A DNA stretch of 64,000 nucleotides, taken from the NCBI GenBank assembly GCA_015228875.1, contig JADGCS010000005.1:3122-67121 (forward strand), given 5' to 3'. This DNA comes from Deltaproteobacteria bacterium (lineage in GTDB: Bacteria > UBA10199 > JADGCS01). Below, piece by piece: positions 19,659 to 63,537 of the stretch. Each line of letters starts with the position of its first letter. Positions within the stretch are counted from its first letter, which is position 1. The translations under genes were made by a program, and so were the position numbers. Below the pieces are notes generated by a model that saw nothing but the letters and a program-made list of their open reading frames with translations, was not told the DNA's origin and made no database searches.

Positions 19659-21735
19659 ACTCAAGTCCGAATACACACCGTGTGGGGATCAACAAAAGGC
19701 CATCGCTGATCTGGTCAGTGGGATTGAAGCGGGCGCACGGTTTCAGACGCTTCTGGGGGTGACCGGTTCTGGCAAGACCTTTACCATGGCCCATGTGATC
19801 GCCAAGGTTAAAAAACCGACACTGATCCTTGCCCCCAACAAGACGCTTGCAGCGCAGCTTTATGCCGAGTTCCGGTCCTTTTTTCCCGAGAGCGCGGTTG
19901 AGTACTTTGTAAGCTATTACGATTATTATCAGCCCGAGGCCTATATCCCGCGCACCGATGTGTACATCGAAAAAGACTCCGCCATCAACGAGGAGATCGA
20001 CAAGCTCAGGCACGCGGCAACACACGCGCTCCTCACACGACAGGATGTGATTATTGTGGCGAGTGTTTCCTGCATTTACGGTCTTGGTTCGCCGGAGGCT
20101 TACAACGGGATGCTTATTGATGTGCAGAGGGGGATGAATTGCGACCGGAAGGAGATCATCAACAGGCTTGTGGAGATCCAGTACGAGCGCAACGATTGCG
20201 ACTTCCATCGCGGTACGTTCAGGGCGCGCGGTGATACACTCGACATCTTTCCGGTCTACGAAGAGTCTGAGGCCGTTCGCATCTCTTTCTTTGACGACGT
20301 GATCGACCAGATCAGTGTCATCGATCCCCTCAAGGGCAACGTGATCAAAAAAACCGATCGTGTGGCCGTGTATCCTGGTTCGCATTTTGTGACACCCGAG
20401 GGGACCAGACAACAAGCGGTCGAGGAGATTAAAAAAGATCTTAAAGATCGCATCCAGTATTTTCACGAGCACAACATGCCCCTCGAAAAACAACGCATCG
20501 AGCAGCGCACGCTTTACGATCTTGAGATGATCGAGGAGATCGGTTTTTGCAAGGGGATCGAAAATTACTCGCGCTATTTTGACGGCCGCAAAGAGGGCGA
20601 ACCGCCGCCAACACTCCTCAAATACATGTCCGGGAGTTTTACAGTTGACAGAGCGCGGGAGCATTCCTCGCAAAATGGAGGGATTCAACCGCGTCAAAGT
20701 CAAGTTGGTAACTTGTTTCCAAGGGATTTTCTGCTTTTTATTGACGAGTCTCATATCTCTGTCCCGCAGATTGGCGGGATGTACAAGGGGGACAGGTCTC
20801 GCAAGCAGACACTGGTTGATTACGGATTTCGGCTTAAGAGTGCGCTTGATAACAGGCCCCTCACCTTCGAAGAGTTCGAGGCATCCCTTGATTATACCAT
20901 TTTTGTCTCGGCAACACCCGGAGATTACGAATTTAAAAAATCGGCAGGTGTGGTGGTCGAACAGGTGATCCGGCCTACAGGGCTTGTAGATCCTGTGGTG
21001 GAGGTGCGACCGGTGGCGCATCAGGTCGATGACTTAATTAACGAGGTCAAAAAGACGGTTGCAGGGGGGGAGAGGGTACTTGTGACAACACTCACCAAAA
21101 GGATGGCAGAGAATCTTTCAAAATACTTTGCTGAGCTTGATATTCGCTGCCGTTACCTTCACTCGGACATCAAGACCCTTGAGAGGTTTGAAATTTTAAG
21201 GGACCTGCGCAAAGGTGTCTTTGACGTGCTGGTGGGGATCAATCTTTTGCGTGAAGGGCTTGATCTGCCCGAGGTGTCTCTGGTGGCGATTCTCGATGCC
21301 GACAAAGAGGGTTTTTTGCGCTCCGAGCGTTCGCTTGTTCAAACCTTTGGCAGGGCGGCAAGAAATATCAACGGCAGGGTGATCGCGTATTCCGACACGA
21401 TGACCGGTTCGTTAAAGCGCGCCATTGCAGAGACCGAGAGGAGGAGAAAGATCCAGATGGCCTACAACAAGGAACATGGTTTGACACCCAAGTCAATCAT
21501 CAAGGCCATCAGGGAGGGGATTCATCAGACGGTGGAGGCCGATTATGTTGATGTTGATACCGTGCTTGACCTGCCAAAGGCAATCAACGTGCGTGATATT
21601 CCAAAAATGATTGTCAAGCTGCGCAAGGAGATGCTCAAGTGTTCACAGTACATGGATTTTGAAAAGGCGGCACTCATCCGTGACGAGATCAAAAAACTCC
21701 GCGAGGTCGAGCTTTGTCTGGGGGGAGATGTGTGA
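19651..21735 (+). CDS. uvrB: Excinuclease ABC subunit B, carrying a 30-aa in-frame repeat insertion
   Basis: [37 protein letters not shown]-terminal UVR coil. Confidence 0.98.
20626..20715 (+). repeat. 90-bp palindromic element, copy A (in frame in uvrB)
   Basis: Matches copies at 25811, 25900, 59907, 61694, 62260; encodes [30 protein letters not shown]. Confidence 0.92.
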
Positions 21736-21796: not shown

Positions 21797-22036
21797 ATGA
21801 AGATGATCAACATTTACAACGCCAAGTCGCAGTTTTCGGCGATCATCGAGCAGGTCGCCACGCGGGGGACCGAGTTTATCATTGGCAAGGCGGGCAGGGC
21901 TGTTGCCAAGATTGTCCCCTACAAAGCAGCGAGAAAAAAAAGGCGTCTTGACTACCTTAAAGGTAAAATTAAAACAGCACCCGATTTTGATCAGTGGCCC
22001 GATGACATCGCACTTTCTCTGGGGATCACATCATGA
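21797..22036 (+). CDS. Phd/YefM-family antitoxin
   Basis: INIYNAKSQFS..IIGKAGRAVAKIVP pattern; ATGA overlap with the PIN gene. Confidence 0.88.
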   Translation: MKMINIYNAKSQFSAIIEQVATRGTEFIIGKAGRAVAKIVPYKAARKKRRLDYLKGKIKTAPDFDQWPDDIALSLGITS

Positions 22037-22410
22037 GATACCTGCTCGACACCCATGTTCTCTTATGGGCCTGTGCCGATTCCAAAAAACTTAAAGCCCC
22101 GGTCAAACAAATTATCGAGTCCTCAGATCATATTATTTTTGTGAGTCTTGCTTCCTTGTGGGAACTGCGTATCAAAGAATCCATAGGCAAGGTGACTTTA
22201 CCCAGGGGGTTTTACAATGGACTCACCAAGGCGGGTTTTGAAATTCTTAACATGACGCTGGATCACATTCATATGGTGGGCAAACTCCCCCTCCACCATC
22301 GCGACCCCTTCGACCGCATGCTGATCGCGCAGTGCCTGTGTGAGCAGATGACACTCATATCCAACGACGAGAATATTAAAAAATACAAATTGAGTCTTGT
22401 GACGGCATGA
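22033..22410 (+). CDS. vapC: PIN-domain (VapC) toxin
   Basis: YLLDTHVLLW, SLWELRIK, HRDPFDRMLIAQ, SND. Confidence 0.92.
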   Translation: MRYLLDTHVLLWACADSKKLKAPVKQIIESSDHIIFVSLASLWELRIKESIGKVTLPRGFYNGLTKAGFEILNMTLDHIHMVGKLPLHHRDPFDRMLIAQCLCEQMTLISNDENIKKYKLSLVTA

Positions 22411-22782: not shown

Positions 22783-24462
22783 ATGGCCATCAATGTTCCC
22801 CAAATAGGTCTTGATGATTACAAACGATATCCCGAAGGGTTAACAGAAAACGACCTCTTTCGCTTTGATACAACCCAGGATAACGAACTAGAGCCGCAAG
22901 ATTTTACTGATGGCAATCAATGGAAAGAATTCGCCTGCAAATATGCAAGGTCGCACAAGAGTCTCAGAGAGGTTTACAGGGGGCAGACGAGCCGCAATCT
23001 CGAGATAGAACTGAGTTGGCAGTTGTTTTGCCTGTGGCAAAGTGACGGTCTCACCGCGGATGAAAAGAAAATACTCGCCGATATCTTGCGTCGTGATTTT
23101 AAGGTGCATGTTGATGAGACAACCGATCGTGAAAGTGTGGTCAGGCAGTTTCTTTCTATCAGTACATTCACGGGAACAAGTGGCGGGGTCGAATACGAAA
23201 AGGAAGATGAACTCGATGAAGAATCTGAGGTGGTGACGCATACCAAGGGATGGAGCGTCAACGCTGGGGCCTATGCAGGCGCAGCCTACCCCTTAAGGCT
23301 CCTTGACGATAGACTGCTTTTAAACCTTAAGCCCGAAGGCAATGCCTATTACGTGAATGGTGAACGGACGATCGAAAACGAAGACGAGGGGCTTGAGATG
23401 CAGCCATTCCAGTATGCGAGCCTCAAGGCAGCAGGGAGCATCACGCTCAGTGATCTCGCGGATGAACAGTGGTATGTGATTGCCGGTGGACTTTACAGGT
23501 ACAGGACAGTCGAACTCAAAGGGTTTACCAAGAGTGATTATGCAGCGAACCTTGATGCAGGGATTGACTACCTCTTTGGGATACCGCTCGATCTGAGTGT
23601 GTCAGGCGGGATTGAAGCTGCTTCGTTCACACCACCTTTGCTGGATTATCACAATCATCAGAGCACACTTCATTATAACGCTGATAGCTCGCTCAGTTAT
23701 AATCTGGCCAGTCAATGGGCATTGGCGGGGAGTTATACATACAAATTCAGGGACGATGCAGAAAAAACAGAAAAAAAGAAAAGCGAAGAACATCAGGGCA
23801 GTCTTTATTTTGACCACAGAAGATCCCTTGATGACTCTGTTTCCGCTGGCGTGAGCTTGAGTCATGTGGATCAAGAAAAATCACAAGGCGATAATAAGTC
23901 ACAAAACAAAGATTTTGCAGCCAGTGCTTGGGCCGAGTACTTTACATTTTTGGGGTCTGACGAACATGGGACAGACCAGGTCCTCACGACCCGTTTGAGT
24001 CTCTCCGCAAACAAAAGAAAGGGTGATTTTGAAGGGTGGTTTCCGGGTGTTTCTGCATCGTTCAGTGGTTCGGCGTATCTTGTTAAGGATGTTTTAGAGG
24101 CCAAACTATCTCTGGATGGTGAGTTTGATTACATTAATAAAGAGACCCCAGAGCAGAGGTTTGATTTTGAAACCAGTTATGCCATTGAGTCTGGTCTTGT
24201 TTTTTACATTGTTAAGGATTTTATCGATTTAAGGTTGGGTGGTTCTTTTGCACACGAGTTTGAACTTGGTGGGTTGAATTACAGTGATATGTCGGGGGCC
24301 GGTGAGGCAGAATTAACATTTTCGTTCGATGTGCTCAACGGTCTCGAATTACTCGTTAAGGGATACGGCGGGAAATCACAGAAACGTAATCTGGAAACCG
24401 AGAAAGTGACCCTGGACAATTTTAATTTTGGTGCCGAGGTTGATTTGGGTATTAATTTTTAA
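22783..24462 (+). CDS. Hypothetical outer-membrane beta-barrel-like protein
   Basis: Many amphipathic strands, C-terminal Phe (VDLGINF); acidic N-terminus without an obvious signal peptide. Confidence 0.6.
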   Translation: MAINVPQIGLDDYKRYPEGLTENDLFRFDTTQDNELEPQDFTDGNQWKEFACKYARSHKSLREVYRGQTSRNLEIELSWQLFCLWQSDGLTADEKKILADILRRDFKVHVDETTDRESVVRQFLSISTFTGTSGGVEYEKEDELDEESEVVTHTKGWSVNAGAYAGAAYPLRLLDDRLLLNLKPEGNAYYVNGERTIENEDEGLEMQPFQYASLKAAGSITLSDLADEQWYVIAGGLYRYRTVELKGFTKSDYAANLDAGIDYLFGIPLDLSVSGGIEAASFTPPLLDYHNHQSTLHYNADSSLSYNLASQWALAGSYTYKFRDDAEKTEKKKSEEHQGSLYFDHRRSLDDSVSAGVSLSHVDQEKSQGDNKSQNKDFAASAWAEYFTFLGSDEHGTDQVLTTRLSLSANKRKGDFEGWFPGVSASFSGSAYLVKDVLEAKLSLDGEFDYINKETPEQRFDFETSYAIESGLVFYIVKDFIDLRLGGSFAHEFELGGLNYSDMSGAGEAELTFSFDVLNGLELLVKGYGGKSQKRNLETEKVTLDNFNFGAEVDLGINF

Positions 24463-24493: not shown

Positions 24494-26029
24494 ATGAGGC
24501 GCTATTCAATGACAGAGACTGCCAGAACAACTGATCACACATCCTTTTTACGCAGGCTGAGTCAAAGCAGCTATTTTAACCTGATTGTCTCTGTCACCCG
24601 AAAATGTGCCCTGCGCTGCATTTACTGCTATGCGACAGACAACAGCATAAACAAGGGACCGCACATCATATCAGATGATCTTCTTGAAATAATCATCAGG
24701 GATGCCTTCGCTGTCAGGCACCCCAAAATCACGTTTGAGTGGACAGGCGGAGAGGCCCTTCTTGCAGGAAAAGTTTTTTTTGAAAAGGTCATTCACTGGC
24801 AGAATATTTACAAAGATTCCAAAAAAGATTTTGAAAACATTATTCAGACCAGCGGTGCTGTCTACGACGAAGGGCTGTACGATTTTCTGATCGACAATCA
24901 TTTTACGCTCTCCATGACCATCGATGGCCCCCCAGAGGTACACAATAAAAACAGGCCCCTGCCCTGTGGTCGCGGGTCATTTGATACGGTATTCAAGTCG
25001 TTCAAGTACATTAAGAAGAGGCAGGGACACTGCGGCGTTCTTTGCACACTCACACATTCTTCTATAGGCAGAATGAAAGAGATATTCGATTTCTACGCGA
25101 GAGAGGGGATCACAAGCTGGCATACCAATCAGTATTCGTTCGATAACAGCAAACCTGTTGGCGAAAAGAGAGAAGGGATTACTCCTGATGAGTATGCCCT
25201 TTATTTTAAGAGCCAGTTTGACTACTGGCTCAAGACCGATAGCCACACGGTTTACCCGAATCAGGTTGATTATCTATTTAAAGCCTTCTGCGGAAGACTT
25301 GAGTCTACCAAATGCACGCACGGTGGAAGGTGCCTCACAAATTTTCTAAATATCGATCCTGAAGGAAATGCCTATCTATGTCCCAAGTTCATCGGCTTTT
25401 CTGATCACAGAATCGGAAATATCAAAGACCAGAGGATCATAGAGTTGATTCACCCCCACAATCCGCGCATCGCGCGGTATATTAAAGAGAGGCTTGTTGC
25501 CATCAACAGGTGCGAGGCGGAATCATGCCCCTACCTGGCAGTGTGCAGCTCCGGCTGTCCGTATGGGTCACTGCTCTCCGGTCAAGACGGGACGATCTCT
25601 GGTCGCGACATCATGTGCAGCGGCATGAGAGATCTCTATCAGCACATAGACCACAGGTTGGCTGCATATGATCTTAAAACAATCACAAAGACAGAACAGG
25701 TTCAAAAGACGCACAGACTGACCAAAAACAAAAAACGCCGAGGCCTGCAAAAGAAAAAGAAAGACGGGCCAATCGTCCGCAGGTGCGCGTCATTAAAACA
25801 TCGTAATTTAGTGTCTAGGAATTTCAAAACCGACAGAGCGCGGGTGGATTCCTCGCAAAATGAAGGAATTCAACCGCGTCAAAGTCAAGTTAGTAACTTG
25901 TATCCAGGAATTTCAAAGTTGACAGAGCGCGGGCGCAACCCTCGCATGACGTGGAAACTCAACCGCGTCAAAGTCAAGTTAGTAACTTGTATAAGTTTAA
26001 ACAATCAACCAGAAAAGGAGGCAAAATGA
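24494..26029 (+). CDS. Radical SAM/SPASM protein (anaerobic sulfatase maturase-like), putative peptide maturase
   Basis: CALRCIYC, FEWTGGEAL, SPASM Cys pattern C..C..C...C..C..C...C...C; tail extended by two repeat copies. Confidence 0.88.
   Translation: MRRYSMTETARTTDHTSFLRRLSQSSYFNLIVSVTRKCALRCIYCYATDNSINKGPHIISDDLLEIIIRDAFAVRHPKITFEWTGGEALLAGKVFFEKVIHWQNIYKDSKKDFENIIQTSGAVYDEGLYDFLIDNHFTLSMTIDGPPEVHNKNRPLPCGRGSFDTVFKSFKYIKKRQGHCGVLCTLTHSSIGRMKEIFDFYAREGITSWHTNQYSFDNSKPVGEKREGITPDEYALYFKSQFDYWLKTDSHTVYPNQVDYLFKAFCGRLESTKCTHGGRCLTNFLNIDPEGNAYLCPKFIGFSDHRIGNIKDQRIIELIHPHNPRIARYIKERLVAINRCEAESCPYLAVCSSGCPYGSLLSGQDGTISGRDIMCSGMRDLYQHIDHRLAAYDLKTITKTEQVQKTHRLTKNKKRRGLQKKKKDGPIVRRCASLKHRNLVSRNFKTDRARVDSSQNEGIQPRQSQVSNLYPGISKLTERGRNPRMTWKLNRVKVKLVTCISLNNQPEKEAK
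25811..25900 (+). repeat. 90-bp palindromic element, copy B1
   Basis: Encodes [30 protein letters not shown] in the rSAM frame. Confidence 0.92.
25900..25989 (+). repeat. 90-bp palindromic element, copy B2 (tandem, 1-nt overlap with B1)
   Basis: Same ends and CGCGG/CCGCG stem; read in the alternative open frame ([18 protein letters not shown]). Confidence 0.88.
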
Positions 26030-26358
26030 AAGTCACAAACAGTCCCAAGGTAACCAATACCGCCGCGGAAACAGGGTATGCGCCAACGCCGGTCCAAGAG
26101 GCTCCCATTCCTCAGGTGATTAAGGAGATGAAGGATTGGCAGAAGCAGCAGGACCTCAGCAGCCTGCTCGAAGGCAAGATGTATGCGGTTGCGGAAGGAC
26201 ATACGGACATTCACACGAACTCGACCAGGTGCGGGGGAGAATGTCATATCGATATCCACAAGGACAATCACACGGACAAGACATCAGATAAAGGCGCGCA
26301 CACAAACGTAGGACCCAAACCGCCAAAACCACCAAAAGAGCCGACCCCCAAGGGTTAA
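26026..26358 (+). CDS. 110-aa His-x-Asp/Asn repeat peptide, putative RiPP precursor
   Basis: AAGGAGG RBS, ATGA overlap with the rSAM stop; HTD, HTN, HID, HKD, HTD, HTN. Confidence 0.8.
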   Translation: MKVTNSPKVTNTAAETGYAPTPVQEAPIPQVIKEMKDWQKQQDLSSLLEGKMYAVAEGHTDIHTNSTRCGGECHIDIHKDNHTDKTSDKGAHTNVGPKPPKPPKEPTPKG

Positions 26359-26409: not shown

Positions 26410-27171
26410 TTATACAACCAGACCCTGTGTGAGCCTATCCATAAACTCCCCAATCCCTCCGTGATGCACAAAATCAGCCATATGATCCAATGGTGTGGGG
26501 TCGCGGTTGATGATGGCCAGAAAGGCGCCGCTTTCTTTGGCGATGGCGGGAATTGAGGCCGCAGGTTGAACCTGCAGGGAAGAACCTAGGACAATAAAGA
26601 CCTTGGCCTGTGTAGCCCACTCATGTGCCTGCTGCATCTCGTTAACCGGCATGGGTTGACCAAACGAGATGGTCGCGGGTTTAAGATAACCGCCGCAGTC
26701 CTTGCACACGGGGGGATCAAAGCCTTTTTGCGGGTCGATGGATTCGAAGACGGGTGCGGCCTCTGTGAGTCGCCAACACTTAAGGCAGACGACCTTTCTG
26801 TCGGTCCCGTGCAGCTCTACGGTTTTTTTATTTGACACACCGGCGATCTCGTGAAGGCCATCGACATTTTGCGTGATGAGCCCAAGCAGTTTGCCGCGTC
26901 TCTCAAACTCTGCAATGGTCGTGTGTCCTGTGTTTGGCTTGACACTCTTGTAGAGCTCAAAGGTTTCTTTTTTCATGGTCCAATATCTTACACGGGCTGT
27001 GTGGCTTGAGAGAAAATCGTCGTAATACACGGGCTGGTAACGGGTCCAAATCCCGCCAGGGCTTCTAAAATCAGGGACACCGGACTCGGTACTGATCCCG
27101 GCACCGGTAAAAAAAACGACGTCAACTGTGGTTTTGATTTGATGAATGATTTGTGAATGCGAAAGCGGCAT
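26410..27171 (-). CDS. cobB: NAD-dependent protein deacylase (sirtuin)
   Basis: FTGAGISTESGVPDFR, TQNVDGLH, ELHG, two CxxC, LGSSLQVQPAA. Confidence 0.95.
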   Translation of the reverse strand: MPLSHSQIIHQIKTTVDVVFFTGAGISTESGVPDFRSPGGIWTRYQPVYYDDFLSSHTARVRYWTMKKETFELYKSVKPNTGHTTIAEFERRGKLLGLITQNVDGLHEIAGVSNKKTVELHGTDRKVVCLKCWRLTEAAPVFESIDPQKGFDPPVCKDCGGYLKPATISFGQPMPVNEMQQAHEWATQAKVFIVLGSSLQVQPAASIPAIAKESGAFLAIINRDPTPLDHMADFVHHGGIGEFMDRLTQGLVV

Positions 27172-28616
27172 TAAAAAGCAAGTGTGGCCTGAAGCATCCC
27201 CACATGGTAGATGCGGTCATCAGGGCCGACAATACCATCAAGCGTCATTTTGTATTCGGCCTGTAGTTTTGCGTTTTTGTCTACAAAGTAATAACCAAAA
27301 CAGACCCCGCCCTCCCATTCGTTTGCGGGATCACCGTCGACATCACCGCCCCCAAGCTGACCCGGCAGATCGTTATCGCCGGAGCGAGCCGTCATCAGGT
27401 TCAGGTATGAGTTTGTCATGTCGTCAATGACTCCGGCACCTCGGAGAGCCACCTCCAGTTTTTTCTTTATCAGAAAGTAGCTGGCTTTGGCTTCAAGGCC
27501 CATATCGAGCTGTGCTCTTGTGAACATGTCGGGGTCAATTTGTCTTATAATACCGCCGGCAATAAGGCTGAAACCTGCGTATTTAAATTTTACATCGGCG
27601 GCGCCACCAATAATACGCGCCTGTGTCCCTGTTTCGAGGTGTCCAAAATCGGCGCCAAATCCGGCTGTCATGGCCGGTTTTTCGGTATTGGCAAAATCGC
27701 CTTCGGTTCCCGAGTCGTATTTTCCAAAGAGATTAAAGTCAAAGCGTGCTGCATAGCAGAGTTCGTTATTTAAATTGGCCGTAATTTTCATGTCTTCGCT
27801 GTTTGTTACTGTGATGGCATAACTGAACCACTTGATTCCCCCATTTACAGCAAGCCCGATGGCATTGGCAAAATCGTAGTTATAGGTAGGCATGGAGTAA
27901 GAGATAAACATTGTGCTGGTTGGGCTGGCTCCAAGTCCAGAGATGCTAACAGATTGTCTTGTGACAAAGATGCCAAATTCAGGGATAAATTTGTAGCCGA
28001 TTTCAAAATTATTAAGGGCAAGACTTGAATTGGGGTTGATGGCTATGGTGTAAACCAATTTTTCGTTAAATAGGTTGCCACCAAAAACAAGCCTGATTGA
28101 TCGCAGGGCAAATGTGTGCCCGTCTTCAAAGTCTTCTGCGATGTTGAAGGAGTAGCCAGCCTGAATACGGCCGTTTATTGATAACGCGTATTTTTTGTCG
28201 GAGCTTCTTACAAAAAATCCTCCATCGTAGCCGGCCGTTTTATCGGCATCGAGTCCTTTTTTCATGGATTCGATCTCGGCCCTGAGGCTGCCGATTTGCG
28301 AGATGACATACGACTGGTTGAATTCTTCGGGCTTAAATGCGGTTGTTGTTTTGGTTTGAATGGCGGTTGGGCTGGGGCTTGTGACCGCGGTATTGGCAGC
28401 GACGACAAGATCGGGTTTTGCAGTAGATAGAGATATATCGTCCGCATTGCTTGACGCATTGTTTTTTAGTGAGTTGTAATAGGATTCGGGGAGTGTGTAT
28501 GTGTTTTGTGCATGGCTTGCTGAAGACACAGAGTTTATTGTTTGAGCGGAAACTTGTGGGGAGTTTAGCAACACGCACAAGCACATGACCTGCAAAAAAA
28601 AGATAGTTTTTCTCAT
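27171..28616 (-). CDS. OprO/OprP-like porin
   Basis: Signal peptide, coiled segment, AGYDGGFFVRS...INGRIQ pattern, C-terminal Phe. Confidence 0.78.
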   Translation of the reverse strand: MRKTIFFLQVMCLCVLLNSPQVSAQTINSVSSASHAQNTYTLPESYYNSLKNNASSNADDISLSTAKPDLVVAANTAVTSPSPTAIQTKTTTAFKPEEFNQSYVISQIGSLRAEIESMKKGLDADKTAGYDGGFFVRSSDKKYALSINGRIQAGYSFNIAEDFEDGHTFALRSIRLVFGGNLFNEKLVYTIAINPNSSLALNNFEIGYKFIPEFGIFVTRQSVSISGLGASPTSTMFISYSMPTYNYDFANAIGLAVNGGIKWFSYAITVTNSEDMKITANLNNELCYAARFDFNLFGKYDSGTEGDFANTEKPAMTAGFGADFGHLETGTQARIIGGAADVKFKYAGFSLIAGGIIRQIDPDMFTRAQLDMGLEAKASYFLIKKKLEVALRGAGVIDDMTNSYLNLMTARSGDNDLPGQLGGGDVDGDPANEWEGGVCFGYYFVDKNAKLQAEYKMTLDGIVGPDDRIYHVGMLQATLAF

Positions 28617-28779: not shown

Positions 28780-30567
28780 TCAGCCATGTTTGTTGTAGAG
28801 GGCAGCATTTTTGTTAAAATAGTTGCTGCTGTCAAAACCGTATATTGATTTGTAGCGTAGCCAGTGCGCAACGTCGTGGACGTCCATGAGTTGCTTGAGT
28901 GATTTAATATATTTATTAAGCTCCATGACAACAGATGGCTTGTCATGCAGACATTGGTACAATGCAAAGATTAAATAATCATTGCTCATAATCTTGTGTT
29001 TGTATGGTGTCACAAGTGAGTTTAAAAGTTCTTCTCTTTCCAGTGCCTTTGTTTCGCGAGCCTTCCACTCCAGACCTCTGGTCTCAGAAAAGGCATATCC
29101 GTAGATGTTATCTTCGCGTGAGTATTTGTGATCAATTATAATTCCGTACGCGTCAGGATCGTTGAACATGGGCGTGTTATGATGCAATTCAAGAGAACTG
29201 AAACCCCAACAGTTGACAATGTCTGAATATGTTCTGATAAAACTGCATAACTCGTTGAACTCTTCATCCGTCTCGTGTGGAAAACCAACGATGATATTTA
29301 CGCATATCCAGATGCCCGCATCGTGTGCATTAATGATGCCTCTCAGGGCCTCATCTATTGAAAGTTGTTTGTTGATAAGTTTGAGTATCCTTTCAATCGG
29401 TGATTCGAGGCCGAACCAGAGCTTAATGCATCCTGACTCTCTGAGCAGACTACAGACGTCTTTTGAAAGGTTTCTAAAACACGCCGAATCTGAATATTGT
29501 ATATTCAGTCTCCGTTTAATGATTTCACTGCAGAACTCCTCAACATATTTTTGTGAAAAGTTGATTTGTGAGTTCAGAAACAAAAAATTCTTGATCCCCT
29601 TTTCATTGACATATCTTTCAAGTATATCGACCACAACTTTTGCGGGCTTTGCAATCAAGGGATTATTGGCTTCCTTACAGAAGGCGCATTTATGACTGCA
29701 ACCGTACATGAATTTATACGGGTAGATGGCTATTTCAGCTTCCTGCCAGTGATTTTTGCAGGGAGTCTGGGGCAATATTTTTGCAAATGACGTGGTGTAG
29801 TGACTGCCGTTCACAATATCGTATGAGGGCGTGATGTTCAGAAGTTTACTTCTCAAAACAGTTTCTGTGTCTGTTGTGGTATTTGAAAGCTCTTCTCCGT
29901 CGACCAGCGTCCACTCTTTGCCATGAATAAATAATTCTCCGGTATGTTTAACATGCTCAGTTAATTTATCTGTATCGAAGTCGGTATTGACCAATATTGG
30001 AAGGGCAATGGCTCCATCACCGAAGAAAAGATAATCATAAGGGTGATCCTGTGACTGATCCAGCGCTTTTTTGATGTTGTGTGCGCCAATGATGTTGAGT
30101 ATCTGACCACCCAGTATGATTTTTTGATCGGACTTGTTTTTCAATCTTCTACACAGAAGTGTGATAAATCCAAAAGAGGATTCGAAGACATCATGGAAGA
30201 CCGTGACCCGATTGAGAGAGATCGCAATGGCAGAATAACTGAAGGAGCCTATGAATTCGACTGCCTTATTGAGTACTGTATCCAGATCTGAGGGCAGTGT
30301 CTCTTTTCTTGTTTTGATGATGTGTCTCCATTTTTGGAGGTATTGCAGTGTTGATGTTGCGAGAAGTGTTTTTTTGTCATGCAAGATATTGAACTTAAGA
30401 TTGAGATCAACATAGGTGGTTGGGATATGTGCGTGTTTTAAGCCGCCTGTGACGAGTGATGATCCGAGAGCGGGCTCGACATAGGGGAGTTCCCTAAATA
30501 GGGTAAGGTTCGGTGCCACCAGAAACAGCAGATTTTGGTCTCTTGAATTCTCCATAAAACCAAACAT
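28780..30567 (-). CDS. B12-binding-domain radical SAM protein (class B methyltransferase-like)
   Basis: N-terminal cobalamin-binding-like region; YGCSHKCAFC; SGCIKLWFGLES; NIIVGFPHET. Confidence 0.85.
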   Translation of the reverse strand: MFGFMENSRDQNLLFLVAPNLTLFRELPYVEPALGSSLVTGGLKHAHIPTTYVDLNLKFNILHDKKTLLATSTLQYLQKWRHIIKTRKETLPSDLDTVLNKAVEFIGSFSYSAIAISLNRVTVFHDVFESSFGFITLLCRRLKNKSDQKIILGGQILNIIGAHNIKKALDQSQDHPYDYLFFGDGAIALPILVNTDFDTDKLTEHVKHTGELFIHGKEWTLVDGEELSNTTTDTETVLRSKLLNITPSYDIVNGSHYTTSFAKILPQTPCKNHWQEAEIAIYPYKFMYGCSHKCAFCKEANNPLIAKPAKVVVDILERYVNEKGIKNFLFLNSQINFSQKYVEEFCSEIIKRRLNIQYSDSACFRNLSKDVCSLLRESGCIKLWFGLESPIERILKLINKQLSIDEALRGIINAHDAGIWICVNIIVGFPHETDEEFNELCSFIRTYSDIVNCWGFSSLELHHNTPMFNDPDAYGIIIDHKYSREDNIYGYAFSETRGLEWKARETKALEREELLNSLVTPYKHKIMSNDYLIFALYQCLHDKPSVVMELNKYIKSLKQLMDVHDVAHWLRYKSIYGFDSSNYFNKNAALYNKHG

Positions 30568-30645
30568 GGACTCTTGGGAAATAGTCGTACATAATAAAGC
30601 TTGTCAATCCGAATTGGGAACAATAAATTGTGCAGGAGGCTGTAC

Positions 30646-31623
30646 ATGAAAACATTCAGAGAAATCCTGGCCGATATTGACTGGGCCATGCCCGACAGTC
30701 AGTATTGTTCAAACACATTAATTTGTTTGCCGAGGTATAAGAGATTTCACGAATTGATCATGCACAACAAAAGGGAATCATCCACAACTTATGTTGATCG
30801 TAACTTTTGTCGCAGAGATAAAATTAAACGGAAACTAACTCGCGTAAAAGCGATGTTGAAAAAAATGTCGCTGCATTTCAAAATTACTCCTGATACGTGT
30901 GTTTTGGACCTTGGTTCTGGTCTTGGAATGGAATCTCTTATACTTCACTTCTTAACCGGTGTGACTGTGTGTGCTGTTGACAGAGAAACGCAAATCGAAT
31001 TTAAAAAAAGAAGTTGTCATATTAACGATTGGTATGATGATTTGGTCTTTGTACTTAAGGAGGCTGGTATCTGTGATTGTTGTCTTGATAAGGATTCCCT
31101 GAACAGCCGCGTACGCAGTATTGCCGCAGATGCCTCTCAATTGCCAGTTATGGATAATAGTTTCGATCTCGTATTCAGTATTTATTCCCTGGAGCACTTT
31201 ACAAAACTGGAACAGACCGTTGGGGAAATTCGTCGGGTATTACGGCCGGGGGGGGTGTTTTACTTTAAAACATCAAATTACAATTCTCTGGTTGGCCCGC
31301 ATACTCCGGGAATCATCGATATTCCATGGGCACATTTGGTGATTTCAAAGAAAGAGATATGCAAGATCAAGAAGGAGATTGATCCGACGATTACAGATGA
31401 TGATCTCGAAATGTTCATGGAGATCAACGAAAACACACTTGATCAATGGAAAGCTGTTTTTCCGAAAGACCTTTGGCACTTTGTCAAATGGGATATGATC
31501 AGGGATCCTGATCTTTCAGAAAAAGACATACCTGATTGGGTACTGAAGCACAAACCTGATGAGGTCTCGATTGATGATATCCTGGTAGAAGACATTGAAG
31601 CTATTCTCATTAATAACAAGTAA
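30646..31623 (+). CDS. Class I SAM-dependent methyltransferase
   Basis: VLDLGSGLG, FDLVFSIYSLEHF, RVLRPGG; AGGAGG RBS before ATG 30646. Confidence 0.9.
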   Translation: MKTFREILADIDWAMPDSQYCSNTLICLPRYKRFHELIMHNKRESSTTYVDRNFCRRDKIKRKLTRVKAMLKKMSLHFKITPDTCVLDLGSGLGMESLILHFLTGVTVCAVDRETQIEFKKRSCHINDWYDDLVFVLKEAGICDCCLDKDSLNSRVRSIAADASQLPVMDNSFDLVFSIYSLEHFTKLEQTVGEIRRVLRPGGVFYFKTSNYNSLVGPHTPGIIDIPWAHLVISKKEICKIKKEIDPTITDDDLEMFMEINENTLDQWKAVFPKDLWHFVKWDMIRDPDLSEKDIPDWVLKHKPDEVSIDDILVEDIEAILINNK

Positions 31624-59906: not shown

Positions 59907-59996
59907 CAAGTTACTAACTTGACTTTGACGCGGTTGAATTCCTCCATTTTGCGAGGAATGCACCCGCGCTCTGTCAACTTTGAAATTCCCAAACAT
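59907..59996 (-). repeat. 90-bp palindromic element, copy C (intergenic)
   Basis: Reverse complement matches the consensus nearly perfectly. Confidence 0.92.
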
Positions 59997-60419: not shown

Positions 60420-60421
60420 AA

Positions 60422-60509
60422 CAAGTTACAAACTTAACCTTGGTGCGGCTGGATTTATGTGAAGAATACACCCGCGCTTGGTCAACTTTGAAAGTCAAAT
60501 TCTTGGAAC
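60422..60509 (-). repeat. 90-bp palindromic element, degenerate copy D
   Basis: CAAGTTACAAACTT...GCGG...CACCCGCGCT..GTCAACTTTGAAA; shortened inner hairpin; ends 2 nt before the ATG at 60419. Confidence 0.75.
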
Positions 60510-61693: not shown

Positions 61694-61783
61694 CAAGTTA
61701 CTAACTTGACTTCGACGCGGTTGGATTCCTCCATTTTGCGAGGAATGAACCCGCGCTCTGTCGACTTTGAAATTCCTAGACTT
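61694..61783 (-). repeat. 90-bp palindromic element, copy E (intergenic, upstream of dsbD)
   Basis: Reverse complement matches the consensus. Confidence 0.92.
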
Positions 61784-61818: not shown

Positions 61819-63537
61819 ATGAAAATCAAAAACACTTTTTTCATCTATTTGATTTTATTTTTCACGTCAACAGCTCATGGGTACTTAAGTAAAACAGATG
61901 AGTCACTTCCTTTTACTCTTTTTTTTGATGATGAAACACCTCTGCTGGTGACGGATTTTAGGGGAGAGATAGAATTTCTATTCAATATTCCCGAAAAACA
62001 TCATCTGTATCGCGAAAAGATAGAGATCAAGTTTGACTCGGACAAAATCAGTCACACACTTGTAAAACCCGCTGGTATTTTAAAATACGACGAATTTATG
62101 GGGATGGAAACAGAGGTTTATGAGCATCAACTTGCTGTGCTCGCAAAAGTACAGTTTGCGCGTGACTTTGATTTTAAACAGGCCCTGACTGGGGCCATTT
62201 ATTATCAGGGCTGTTCAAACAAAATCTGTTTCAGATCGGTGGAGACGCGGTTTAAATTTGTGTCTAGGAATTTCAAAACCGACAGAGCGCGGGAGGATTC
62301 CTCGCAAAACAAAGGAATTCAACCGCGTCCCCCAAGGGGATTTCCTTCGGGGCATCAAAGTCAAGTTAGTAACTTGCTTTTAAACCCGGATCACAAAGCA
62401 TTGGCGGGACAGATGATCACGGCAGACCAACATGTCAGCAATACCAGGCCCGGCGTCTGGGAGATTCTTAAAAAAAACGATCTTGGGCTTGTGTTGAAAC
62501 AGGGTCTTTTTCTGGCCATTCTGTTCACGTTTATCGCGGGCGTGTTGACCGGATTTACCCCCTGTGTTCTGCCCATCATACCGCTGACGCTCGCATTTAT
62601 TGGTGTGACCCCTCAGGCAAAGGGCGCCCGCAAGTTTAACAGCCTGCTGGTTTTTGTGCTGGGGATGGTCCTCACAAATTCTTTCCTGGGTATTCTGTCG
62701 GCCCTCATCGGCAAGACCCATGGTTTCTATTATCAGAGGGATTTGTTCCTCGTCCTTCTTATTCTGTTCCTTGTTCTTATGGGGCTCTGGCTTGTCGGTG
62801 TTGTCAACTTGAGCCTGTCTTCAAAAATTCAGACAGGTATTTCGAGGTTTCAACCAAAGAGCGGGGTGGTCCGTAATCTTTTTGCTGGTCTTACCATTGG
62901 CGTCCTTGCAGCACCCTGCGTGGGCCCTGTTTTAGGGCCATTGCTTGTTTATATTTCCACAAGACAGGATTTGTTTCTGGGTACTGTTCTCATGTTGAGT
63001 TATTCGCTGGGCTTAAGTGTGGTCTTTTTTATACTTGGTTTTTTCTCACGGGGCTGGGTGGCGAGGTTTGGCGAAAAATCAAATATTATCAAAAAACTTC
63101 TTTCGATCCTTTTATTTGTCACCGCTTTTTATTACCTTTACGTTCTTGTCAATCCCTGGGTTGGCAGCAAAACCTCTGATGATTCTTTTTTTAAGAACGA
63201 TTTAAAAGTGGCAGTGAGCCTGGCAAAAAAAGAAAACAAAAAAGTCCTCGTGGATTTTTATGCTGACTGGTGTCTCCCCTGCAAAGAATGGGACCAGCTT
63301 GTCTGGTCTAAAGAAAATGTGAGGGGTCTGGTCGTAGAGAGTTTTGTTCCGGTCAAGATCAACTGCACAAAAGAAACAGGGCCATGCGCCGATGCTGTCA
63401 AAACCTATCAGGTGATTGGCTGGCCTACAATATTATTTATTGATGAAAAAGGTGATGAAATAAAGGACCGGCGTATTGTTGGTGATGTGATGGAGGCAGA
63501 GGAATTCATGGATTATATCAGGATGCTGAACCAGTGA
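61819..63537 (+). CDS. dsbD: Thiol:disulfide interchange protein DsbD, carrying a 39-aa in-frame repeat insertion
   Basis: N-domain QGC...C, FTPCVLP, APCVGP, thioredoxin WCLPC. Confidence 0.92.
   Translation: MKIKNTFFIYLILFFTSTAHGYLSKTDESLPFTLFFDDETPLLVTDFRGEIEFLFNIPEKHHLYREKIEIKFDSDKISHTLVKPAGILKYDEFMGMETEVYEHQLAVLAKVQFARDFDFKQALTGAIYYQGCSNKICFRSVETRFKFVSRNFKTDRAREDSSQNKGIQPRPPRGFPSGHQSQVSNLLLNPDHKALAGQMITADQHVSNTRPGVWEILKKNDLGLVLKQGLFLAILFTFIAGVLTGFTPCVLPIIPLTLAFIGVTPQAKGARKFNSLLVFVLGMVLTNSFLGILSALIGKTHGFYYQRDLFLVLLILFLVLMGLWLVGVVNLSLSSKIQTGISRFQPKSGVVRNLFAGLTIGVLAAPCVGPVLGPLLVYISTRQDLFLGTVLMLSYSLGLSVVFFILGFFSRGWVARFGEKSNIIKKLLSILLFVTAFYYLYVLVNPWVGSKTSDDSFFKNDLKVAVSLAKKENKKVLVDFYADWCLPCKEWDQLVWSKENVRGLVVESFVPVKINCTKETGPCADAVKTYQVIGWPTILFIDEKGDEIKDRRIVGDVMEAEEFMDYIRMLNQ
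62260..62376 (+). repeat. Palindromic element copy F (117 bp, with nested 27-bp hairpin), in frame in dsbD
   Basis: Encodes VSRNFKTDRAREDSSQNKGIQPRPPRGFPSGHQSQVSNL. Confidence 0.92.

Follow-up and report, generated by a model that had tools for sequence, protein, structure and literature searches.

Does a gene for a radical S-adenosylmethionine (SAM) protein that runs directly into a small, histidine-rich reading frame belong to a peptide-modifying system, and what would the enzyme do to the peptide? The question is raised by a 64,000-nt stretch of a deltaproteobacterial contig (JADGCS010000005.1; hereafter the window), in which a gene for a radical SAM protein with a SPASM region (rSAM) is followed by a gene for a peptide of 110 amino acids (aa). 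A reading made from the sequence alone had proposed the two as a candidate new precursor/maturase pair for a peptide that is ribosomally synthesised and then post-translationally modified (RiPP). Our analysis supports this proposal, as the peptide has a conserved His-X-Asp/Asn core and the pair lies outside every curated model, and the two genes very probably form a RiPP module. The coordinates of all features are collected in Table 1.

A peptide gene coupled to the radical SAM gene

The TGA stop codon of the rSAM gene (26027–26029) and the ATG start codon of the peptide gene (26026–26028) share the tetranucleotide ATGA, and a Shine–Dalgarno sequence lies directly upstream. This translational coupling with a strong ribosome-binding site is exactly as the sequence-only reading had it, and its account of the peptide was right to the residue: a His-free leader of 58 aa, six His residues that each open an H-X-[D/N] triplet, a CGGEC sequence and a Pro/Lys tail. 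Residues 59, 63, 74, 78, 82 and 92 are all the His that the peptide contains. When the peptide was shuffled 200,000 times and scored for six H-X-[DN] motifs, the probability was 5e-6 for the whole peptide and 1e-5 for residues 59–94, and for residues 59–110 none of the 200,000 shuffles reached this number. The database gene call for the rSAM protein (P0001) is 506 aa long, which would place its start at 24509.

As the query of a word-indexed search, the 110-aa peptide returned only itself, and its relatives were reached only via the neighbourhoods of rSAM homologues; tblastn matched the peptide of one such locus (L001) over 89 aa with 36% identity (E = 2e-12). In Pfam and NCBIfam scans the window peptide and five relatives were unmatched, the relatives even at E ≤ 1. 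The CGGEC sequence is specific to the window peptide and not family-wide. Similar Pro-rich tails were seen in just two other peptides, those of L001 and L138, and the tail is thus not a feature of the family.

The pair is conserved in distant phyla

The window rSAM protein has 30 relatives at 38–55% identity. Loci were gathered by look-ups by encoded protein and by scans of genome and metagenome contigs, giving a first set of 60 loci with an rSAM homologue of at least 33% identity and a second set of five further loci. A small open reading frame (ORF) with 4–12 H-X-D/N motifs lies next to the rSAM gene, on the same strand, in 56 of the 60 first-set loci; in the other four, the contigs stop 44–398 nt upstream of the rSAM gene. 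The second set contains a peptide with 2–5 motifs in four of its five loci, once in an uncalled overlapping frame and once in divergent orientation. Overall, a small ORF with 2–12 motifs adjoins an rSAM homologue (33–55% identity) in 60 of 65 loci, so that the expectation that homologues of the enzyme would have such peptides beside them holds in several phyla.

All-against-all clustering of the flanking ORFs showed that only the rSAM and the peptide are common to all loci. The pairing outlasts changes in gene order, with the peptide downstream in the clade of the window, upstream in the Chlorobiales/Bacteroidales clade and divergent in L137. Among the hosts are Chlorobiales, Bacteroidales of the gut and rumen, Elusimicrobiales, Rhizomicrobium and deltaproteobacterial metagenome-assembled genomes (MAGs). 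An exhaustive HMMER pass over 1.84 billion representative sequences outlined a small family with a sharp boundary. Only about eight 50%-identity clusters, of which two are fragments, scored at least 278 bits; beyond these, the scores drop to about 200 bits and blend into a continuum of sequences resembling the anaerobic sulfatase-maturating enzymes (anSMEs).

The loci fall into two clades. Clade 1, which includes the window, consists of metagenome or MAG contigs at 44–55% identity, one of them labelled Proteobacteria. Its precursor gene is found downstream, in most cases overlapping the rSAM stop codon, with a 4-nt overlap in L001 like that in the window and overlapping starts in L002 and L004. 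The clade-1 leaders share the motif P-x-(V/L)-I-x-x-L-x-(D/E)-(L/W)-Q...L-x-x-L-x-x-G, in which the Gln (Q39 in the window) is invariant and the Gly (G50) nearly so; judging from the alignment, this motif is likely the recognition sequence. Clade 2 (33–42% identity) has the precursor upstream of the rSAM gene and comprises Chlorobiales, Prevotella, Alistipes, Rikenellaceae, Tannerella, Elusimicrobiales, Rhizomicrobium and a deltaproteobacterial MAG. Its precursors begin with a hydrophobic N-terminus, KKIA-x-x-LGI-x-IPA-x-LL, followed by NEV(I/V)-x-x-L and then by up to 12 motifs, and many of the cores contain one Cys in mid-core (C-x-x-H) and one close to the C-terminus. The clade-2 N-terminus (L006–L023 and L087–L120; Bacteroidales, Chlorobiales and Elusimicrobiales) resembles a signal peptide or membrane anchor, which is unusual in the substrate of a cytoplasmic rSAM enzyme.

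Most clade-1 loci also encode a Cys-rich protein of 270–290 aa (GYPxCC, GYPEC and FHLPCSFxC; weak DUF483 match), which is absent from clade 2 and may have an accessory or tailoring role. In a single case, L140, the genes immediately upstream of the rSAM/precursor pair code for an Omp85/POTRA protein (TamA/BamA-like; 133–2847) and TamB (1–136). Darobactin and dynobactin, the products of the nearest characterised maturases, are BamA inhibitors; the likeness to the dynobactin maturase described below implies no BamA-related function for the window peptide.

A SPASM enzyme outside the curated families

The gene had been read as a SPASM radical SAM gene, and its CX3CX2C motif and eight conserved C-terminal Cys residues bear this out. 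In an alignment of 18 family members, the SPASM Cys residues are spaced C-x10-G-x4-C ... C-x4-C-x5-C-x3-C ... C, and the region aligns with the auxiliary-cluster cysteines C255/C261/C276 of anSMEcpe. The window enzyme has every residue that is invariant in this alignment. Pfam assigned Radical_SAM at 47.5 bits, with SPASM slightly under threshold. As the radical SAM motif begins at residue 38, there is no N-terminal RiPP recognition element (RRE) domain.

The enzyme reached the cut-off of no NCBIfam model. The top match was the anSME model TIGR03942 (192 bits, cut-off 349), and the best peptide-maturase model was DynA NF041298 (183 bits over the full length, cut-off 450). The other scores were 120 for DarW and 98 for DarE (cut-off 650 for each), 115 for HxsB (cut-off 370; N-terminal half only), 104 for PapB (340), 91 for YhhB NF041707 (445), 87 for GrrM/OscB TIGR04261 (310), 77 for AmcB NF041718 (425) and 63 for FxsB TIGR04269 (370). 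Checking whether the pair belongs to an already characterised family, we found no curated model that covers the enzyme or the peptides. The nearest solved structures by sequence were anSMEcpe (E = 1e-35), CteB and ChlB. An AlphaFold2 model built from the family alignment (predicted local distance difference test score, pLDDT, 86.4) matched anSMEcpe and the triceptide synthase ChlB near-equally, with template modelling (TM) scores of 0.82–0.85 and 0.81–0.82, respectively. Pro297, in a near-conserved C-P-K-F context, aligns with Asp277 of anSMEcpe, the proposed catalytic base of that enzyme.

The grammar of the core

Asp or Asn stands at +2 of 95% of the 421 core His residues of the family, compared with 27% across all core positions and 6–33% for other residue types. 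In 48 distinct peptides, position 3 of the motif is Asn in 54% and Asp in 33%, while Ser is outside the seven commonest residues and the remainder are each at 2% or less. Position 2 is Thr in 39% and Ser in 22%, and otherwise Gly, Val or Ala; I, K, N, E, M and C also occur across the family. The commonest spacing from one His to the next is four residues. Asp and Asn swap freely at position 3 and other small residues are not accepted; the common ground of the two is only a C-beta with an adjacent side-chain carbonyl. At position 1, Tyr replaces His at orthologous positions in HMD/YMD (L004 versus L086), HVD/YVD (L091 versus L016) and HTD/YTD (L010 versus L111). An aromatic acceptor fits these occasional swaps, in which the Asp is kept, better than a metal ligand does, and such a swap would be expected if position 1 merely needs an aromatic acceptor.

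The frequency of Thr or Ser at position 2 (61% of motifs), together with the top match to anSME, raises the alternative that the enzyme oxidises these residues in the manner of an anSME. This seems highly unlikely, as position 2 is variable, HID and HKD being two of the six motifs in the window, and as the score of 192 bits compares with a cut-off of 349. Pro297 at the position of Asp277, with its presumed role, also speaks against it. Furthermore, the only conserved neighbour of the enzyme is the H-X-D/N peptide and not a sulfatase, although the window itself was not scanned for sulfatase genes.

Another alternative is that the Cys residues (C69 and C73 in the window) are joined to the C-beta of Asp/Asn by thioethers like those of ranthipeptides, as by PapB or NxxcB. 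PapB is indeed among the model matches, Cys–Asp links by PapB are described in PMC9413430 and a bond between Asn C-beta and Cys sulfur by NxxcB in PMC11851443, and many clade-2 cores have both an internal and a near-C-terminal Cys. However, the L002, L004/L005, L086 and L140 peptides are free of Cys, the motifs exceed the Cys residues by up to 12 to 2, only 7% of Cys have Asp or Asn at +2, and CGGEC is peculiar to the window. PapB-type ranthipeptides differ further in having a Cys-rich core with Cys-X-X-X-Asp/Glu. We therefore give this explanation very little weight.

His-to-Asp/Asn crosslinks as the favoured chemistry

Two constrained positions around a free middle one, together with precedents for chemistry at Asn/Asp C-beta and at His, favour crosslinking of His to Asp/Asn. 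Aromatic(1)-X(2)-X(3) is the defining grammar of the triceptides, among which HaaB, YhhB and HtkB link His C2 to C-beta on HAA, HNR and HTK motifs (PMC11499958). The dynobactin maturase forms a Trp–Asn C–C link and a His–Tyr N–C link (PMC10288494), and Aro-Xaa-Asn cyclophane motifs are known (cited in PMC9062424). By analogy with these systems, we hold with moderate confidence that the enzyme is a triceptide-like maturase that iteratively forms crosslinks between His(i) and the Asp/Asn(i+2) C-beta, with a loss of 2 Da per motif.

In this mechanism, the RRE-less rSAM/SPASM enzyme probably binds the conserved, helix-like leader motif and would act repeatedly on the core, at its H-X-[D/N] triplets. 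A hydrogen would be taken by the 5′-deoxyadenosyl radical from the C-beta of the Asp/Asn at position 3, leaving a radical that is stabilised by the neighbouring side-chain carbonyl. This radical would then add to the imidazole ring of the position-1 His, at C2 in the manner of HaaB, YhhB and HtkB or at N like the His–Tyr link of dynobactin. Each motif would thus become a three-residue cyclophane, up to six in the window peptide and about twelve in its relatives. Proteolysis or export of the modified peptide may follow, and that the product would bind metal is speculation.

The module could also modify single residues within H-X-D/N, by C-alpha epimerisation or by oxidation or hydroxylation at the C-beta of Asp/Asn, in which case the sole role of His would be in recognition or, within the product, in binding a metal. 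The top hidden Markov model (HMM) and PDB matches, to anSMEs that oxidise C-beta without crosslinking, are in line with such a change, and epimerising and oxidising rSAM enzymes that act on peptides exist, for instance EpeE (PMC13012085). We nevertheless consider it unlikely, as the fixed i/i+2 spacing with a free middle is the signature of a three-residue crosslink (PMC11499958). The His-to-Tyr swaps, too, suit an aromatic acceptor more than a ligand. Finally, Pro297 occupies the place of the presumed catalytic Asp277 of anSMEcpe.

Several observations weigh against the pair being a crosslinking module. The cut-offs of all curated cyclophane-synthase models are far above the scores of the enzyme (310–445 versus 63–91 bits), and the single best model, anSME, is that of an oxidase and not of a crosslinker. 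The Cys-rich DUF483-like protein was not found in the window by HMM search of all six frames over the 64 kb, and one locus, L141, has an rSAM homologue with no visible peptide. In addition, the window enzyme bears an unusual tail of about 100 aa, about 60 of them encoded by a repeat.

Likeness to and difference from known systems

The pair was also compared with known systems. It resembles the triceptide systems in having a SPASM rSAM gene beside the precursor gene, repeated aromatic-X-X triplets with a free position 2, and a compact, RRE-less fold as in ChlB. It differs in that position 3 is Asp/Asn paired with His, a pairing that we did not find described, and in that a peptide has up to 12 motifs, mostly with a period of four; its product is so far only predicted. 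The dynobactin maturase (DynA in NF041298, DynB in PMC10288494) attacks Asn and links a His side chain, as is proposed for the window enzyme, but its precursor is short and contains Trp, whereas the window core (residues 59–110) has no Trp and all family cores together have three.

The anSMEs (TIGR03942; PDB 4K36–4K39) are the top match by HMM, PDB sequence and fold, and share three clusters and the lack of an RRE. Their substrate, however, is a sulfatase with C/S-x-P/A-x-R, while the conserved partner here is a repeat peptide. The Hxs system consists of the repeat peptide HxsA and the rSAM proteins HxsB and HxsC (PMC9062424), and its chemistry is, to our knowledge, uncharacterised. It also combines a His-X-small-polar repeat peptide with a SPASM-type rSAM, but the family described here has D/N instead of Ser at position 3, a single rSAM and no conserved equivalents of HxsC or HxsD. 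A full-text literature search returned His-initiated triceptides (HAA, HNR and HTK), Aro-Xaa-Asn cyclophanes and the His-Xaa-Ser system, and no H-X-D/N rSAM family; the cluster could be an unnamed node in the published triceptide network.

Repeats at the 3′ end of the radical SAM gene

The rSAM homologues are 386–443 aa long, except for a 308-aa fragment (P0029) and a 462-aa protein (P0016), and the window ORF ends about 100 codons later. The extra length comes from two tandem copies of a palindromic repeat of about 90 nt, which the frame crosses before it reaches the ATGA, so that about 60 of its final 75 or so codons are encoded by the two in-frame copies. The sequence-only reading overlooked these insertions, which make up the 3′ end of the gene. 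The repeat is hairpin-forming, has three of its six frames free of stops and occurs at least seven times in the 64 kb, four times in frame within protein-coding genes. Rfam has no match for the window or the repeat, which resembles the Rickettsia palindromic elements. As the uvrB and DsbD-like genes with an in-frame copy look intact, such copies seem to be tolerated.

These insertions bear on a further explanation, namely decay or inactivity of the module in the window, which would seemingly have been acquired as a block and then hit by repeats, so that nothing is made from it in this organism. In its favour are the two repeat copies within the rSAM ORF, the missing clade-1 accessory gene, the orphan status of the neighbouring 559-aa ORF and the presence of a C-terminal Sir2 fragment on one flank with an intact Sir2 gene on the other. 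Yet both ORFs are intact, all family-invariant residues are kept, the strong ribosome-binding site and the ATGA are retained, and the same repeat lies in frame in uvrB and the DsbD-like gene, both intact-looking. We thus regard decay as quite improbable.

Neighbouring genes

The 559-aa ORF upstream of the rSAM gene had been taken for a barrel protein for export or display of the peptide, for which we found no support. It has no homologue among 5.8 billion proteins and no Pfam or NCBIfam match, its single-sequence AlphaFold2 model is unusable (pLDDT 34.5), and we rejected it as a member of the system as it occurs in no homologous locus. Its C-terminus (...VDLGINF) resembles the beta-signal of outer membrane proteins, and no signal peptide was seen. 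The 481-aa ORF on the other side is 28% identical to a weak Porin_O_P gene upstream of the L002 rSAM gene and was also set aside, being found in no locus beyond L002; since uvrB is also common to L002 and the window, this likeness more likely reflects host synteny than function. Neither the nearby B12-rSAM gene nor the methyltransferase gene shows conservation with the pair, and both were kept out of the system.

The Sir2 fragment and the intact Sir2 gene flank a block of about 3.9 kb that contains the 559-aa ORF, the rSAM gene and the peptide gene, which suggests acquisition of this block at a Sir2 gene, through recombination or insertion. Between uvrB and the Sir2 fragment are genes for a toxin–antitoxin pair, a Phd/YefM antitoxin and a VapC-like toxin with a PIN domain. 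Elsewhere in the window, in a region with no convincing ORF, there is a tandem duplication of about 710 nt, whose two copies are 87–98% identical in blocks; Rfam gave no match for it (53.3–55.0 kb), even with an E-value threshold. A promoter and terminator scan stayed at chance level.

Table 1. Coordinates of the features described (positions in the window unless a locus is named)
Feature	Position	Strand	Remark
rSAM/SPASM peptide maturase gene	24494–26029	+	511-aa ORF; catalytic part about residues 1–403
CX3CX2C radical SAM cluster motif (C38, C42, C45)	24605–24628	+	Invariant in the 18-sequence family alignment
SPASM region, eight invariant Cys	25313–25618	+	C274, C280, C296, C340, C345, C351, C355, C375
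Repeat copy 1, about 90 nt, palindromic	25812–25906	+	In frame in rSAM 3′ end; same frame as the uvrB copy
Repeat copy 2, tandem	25901–25995	+	Second stop-free frame
Shine–Dalgarno AAGGAGG	26015–26021	+	4 nt 5′ of the peptide ATG; direct sequence reading
Precursor peptide gene	26026–26358	+	110 aa; called as P0037
His-free leader, residues 1–58	26026–26199	+	Residue scan of the peptide
Leader motif P29–G50 (PQVIKEMKDWQKQQDLSSLLEG)	26110–26175	+	Kept in clade-1 precursors; precursor alignment
Core with six H-X-[D/N] motifs	26200–26307	+	Motif kept across the family
HTD	26200–26208	+
HTN	26212–26220	+
CGGEC, residues 69–73	26230–26244	+	Peptide sequence
HID	26245–26253	+
HKD	26257–26265	+
HTD	26269–26277	+
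HTN	26299–26307	+
Pro/Lys-rich C-terminal tail (GPKPPKPPKEPTPKG), residues 96–110	26311–26355	+	Peptide sequence
Repeat copy in uvrB	20627–20721		In frame; exact 30-aa insertion relative to L002 UvrB (60% identical)
Phd/YefM antitoxin and PIN-domain toxin pair	21797–22410
Sir2 C-terminal fragment, 31 aa	22461–22553	-	Matches the end of the intact Sir2 at 64.5% identity
559-aa orphan ORF (the putative barrel)	22783–24462	+	Neighbour; membership unsupported
Intact Sir2 gene	26410–27171	-	Just right of the 559-aa ORF/rSAM/peptide block
481-aa ORF	27171–28616	-
B12-rSAM gene	28780–30567	-
Methyltransferase gene	30601–31623
Tandem duplication, about 710 nt	53565–54880		Two copies
Intergenic repeat copies	59907–59994, 60421–60496, 61694–61781
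DsbD-like ORF	61819–63537
Repeat copy in the DsbD-like ORF	62261–62376		In frame; linker between DsbD_N and DsbD_TM
Cys-rich protein, L001	1–632
Cys-rich protein, L002	6666–7529
Cys-rich protein, L004	6557–7393
Cys-rich protein, L086	2116–2631
Cys-rich protein, L137	4191–5003 and 1330–2106
Cys-rich protein, L140	4555–4908

Implications

The pair looks like a real and undescribed family of rSAM–SPASM-modified peptides, in which a triceptide-like grammar goes together with a motif that is new and an enzyme lineage that is distinct. The family is rare, with six full-length clusters in the 1.84 billion sequences searched, yet it is spread over distant phyla and includes Bacteroidales of the human and ruminant gut. 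Its enzymes would make up a defined lineage in the space between anSME, the dynobactin maturase and the triceptide synthases, of use for tracing the determinants of substrate specificity in SPASM proteins. As there are only two core genes, the proposed chemistry could easily be tested by co-expression.

If the proposal is true, rSAM cyclophane synthases would gain His-X-Asp/Asn as a new substrate motif, possibly along with a new C–C or C–N linkage, and the crosslinking would be unusually dense, with up to a dozen rings per peptide. A pre-organised product rich in His and Asp would be an obvious candidate for metal binding. It is tentatively possible, though doubtful, that undescribed three-residue rings between the imidazole of His and the C-beta of Asp/Asn, repeated 4–12 times with a period of four, would form a rigid ladder of imidazoles and carboxylates or carboxamides, which may act in anaerobes, Bacteroidales of the gut and rumen among them, as a metal chelator that is secreted or held at the surface.

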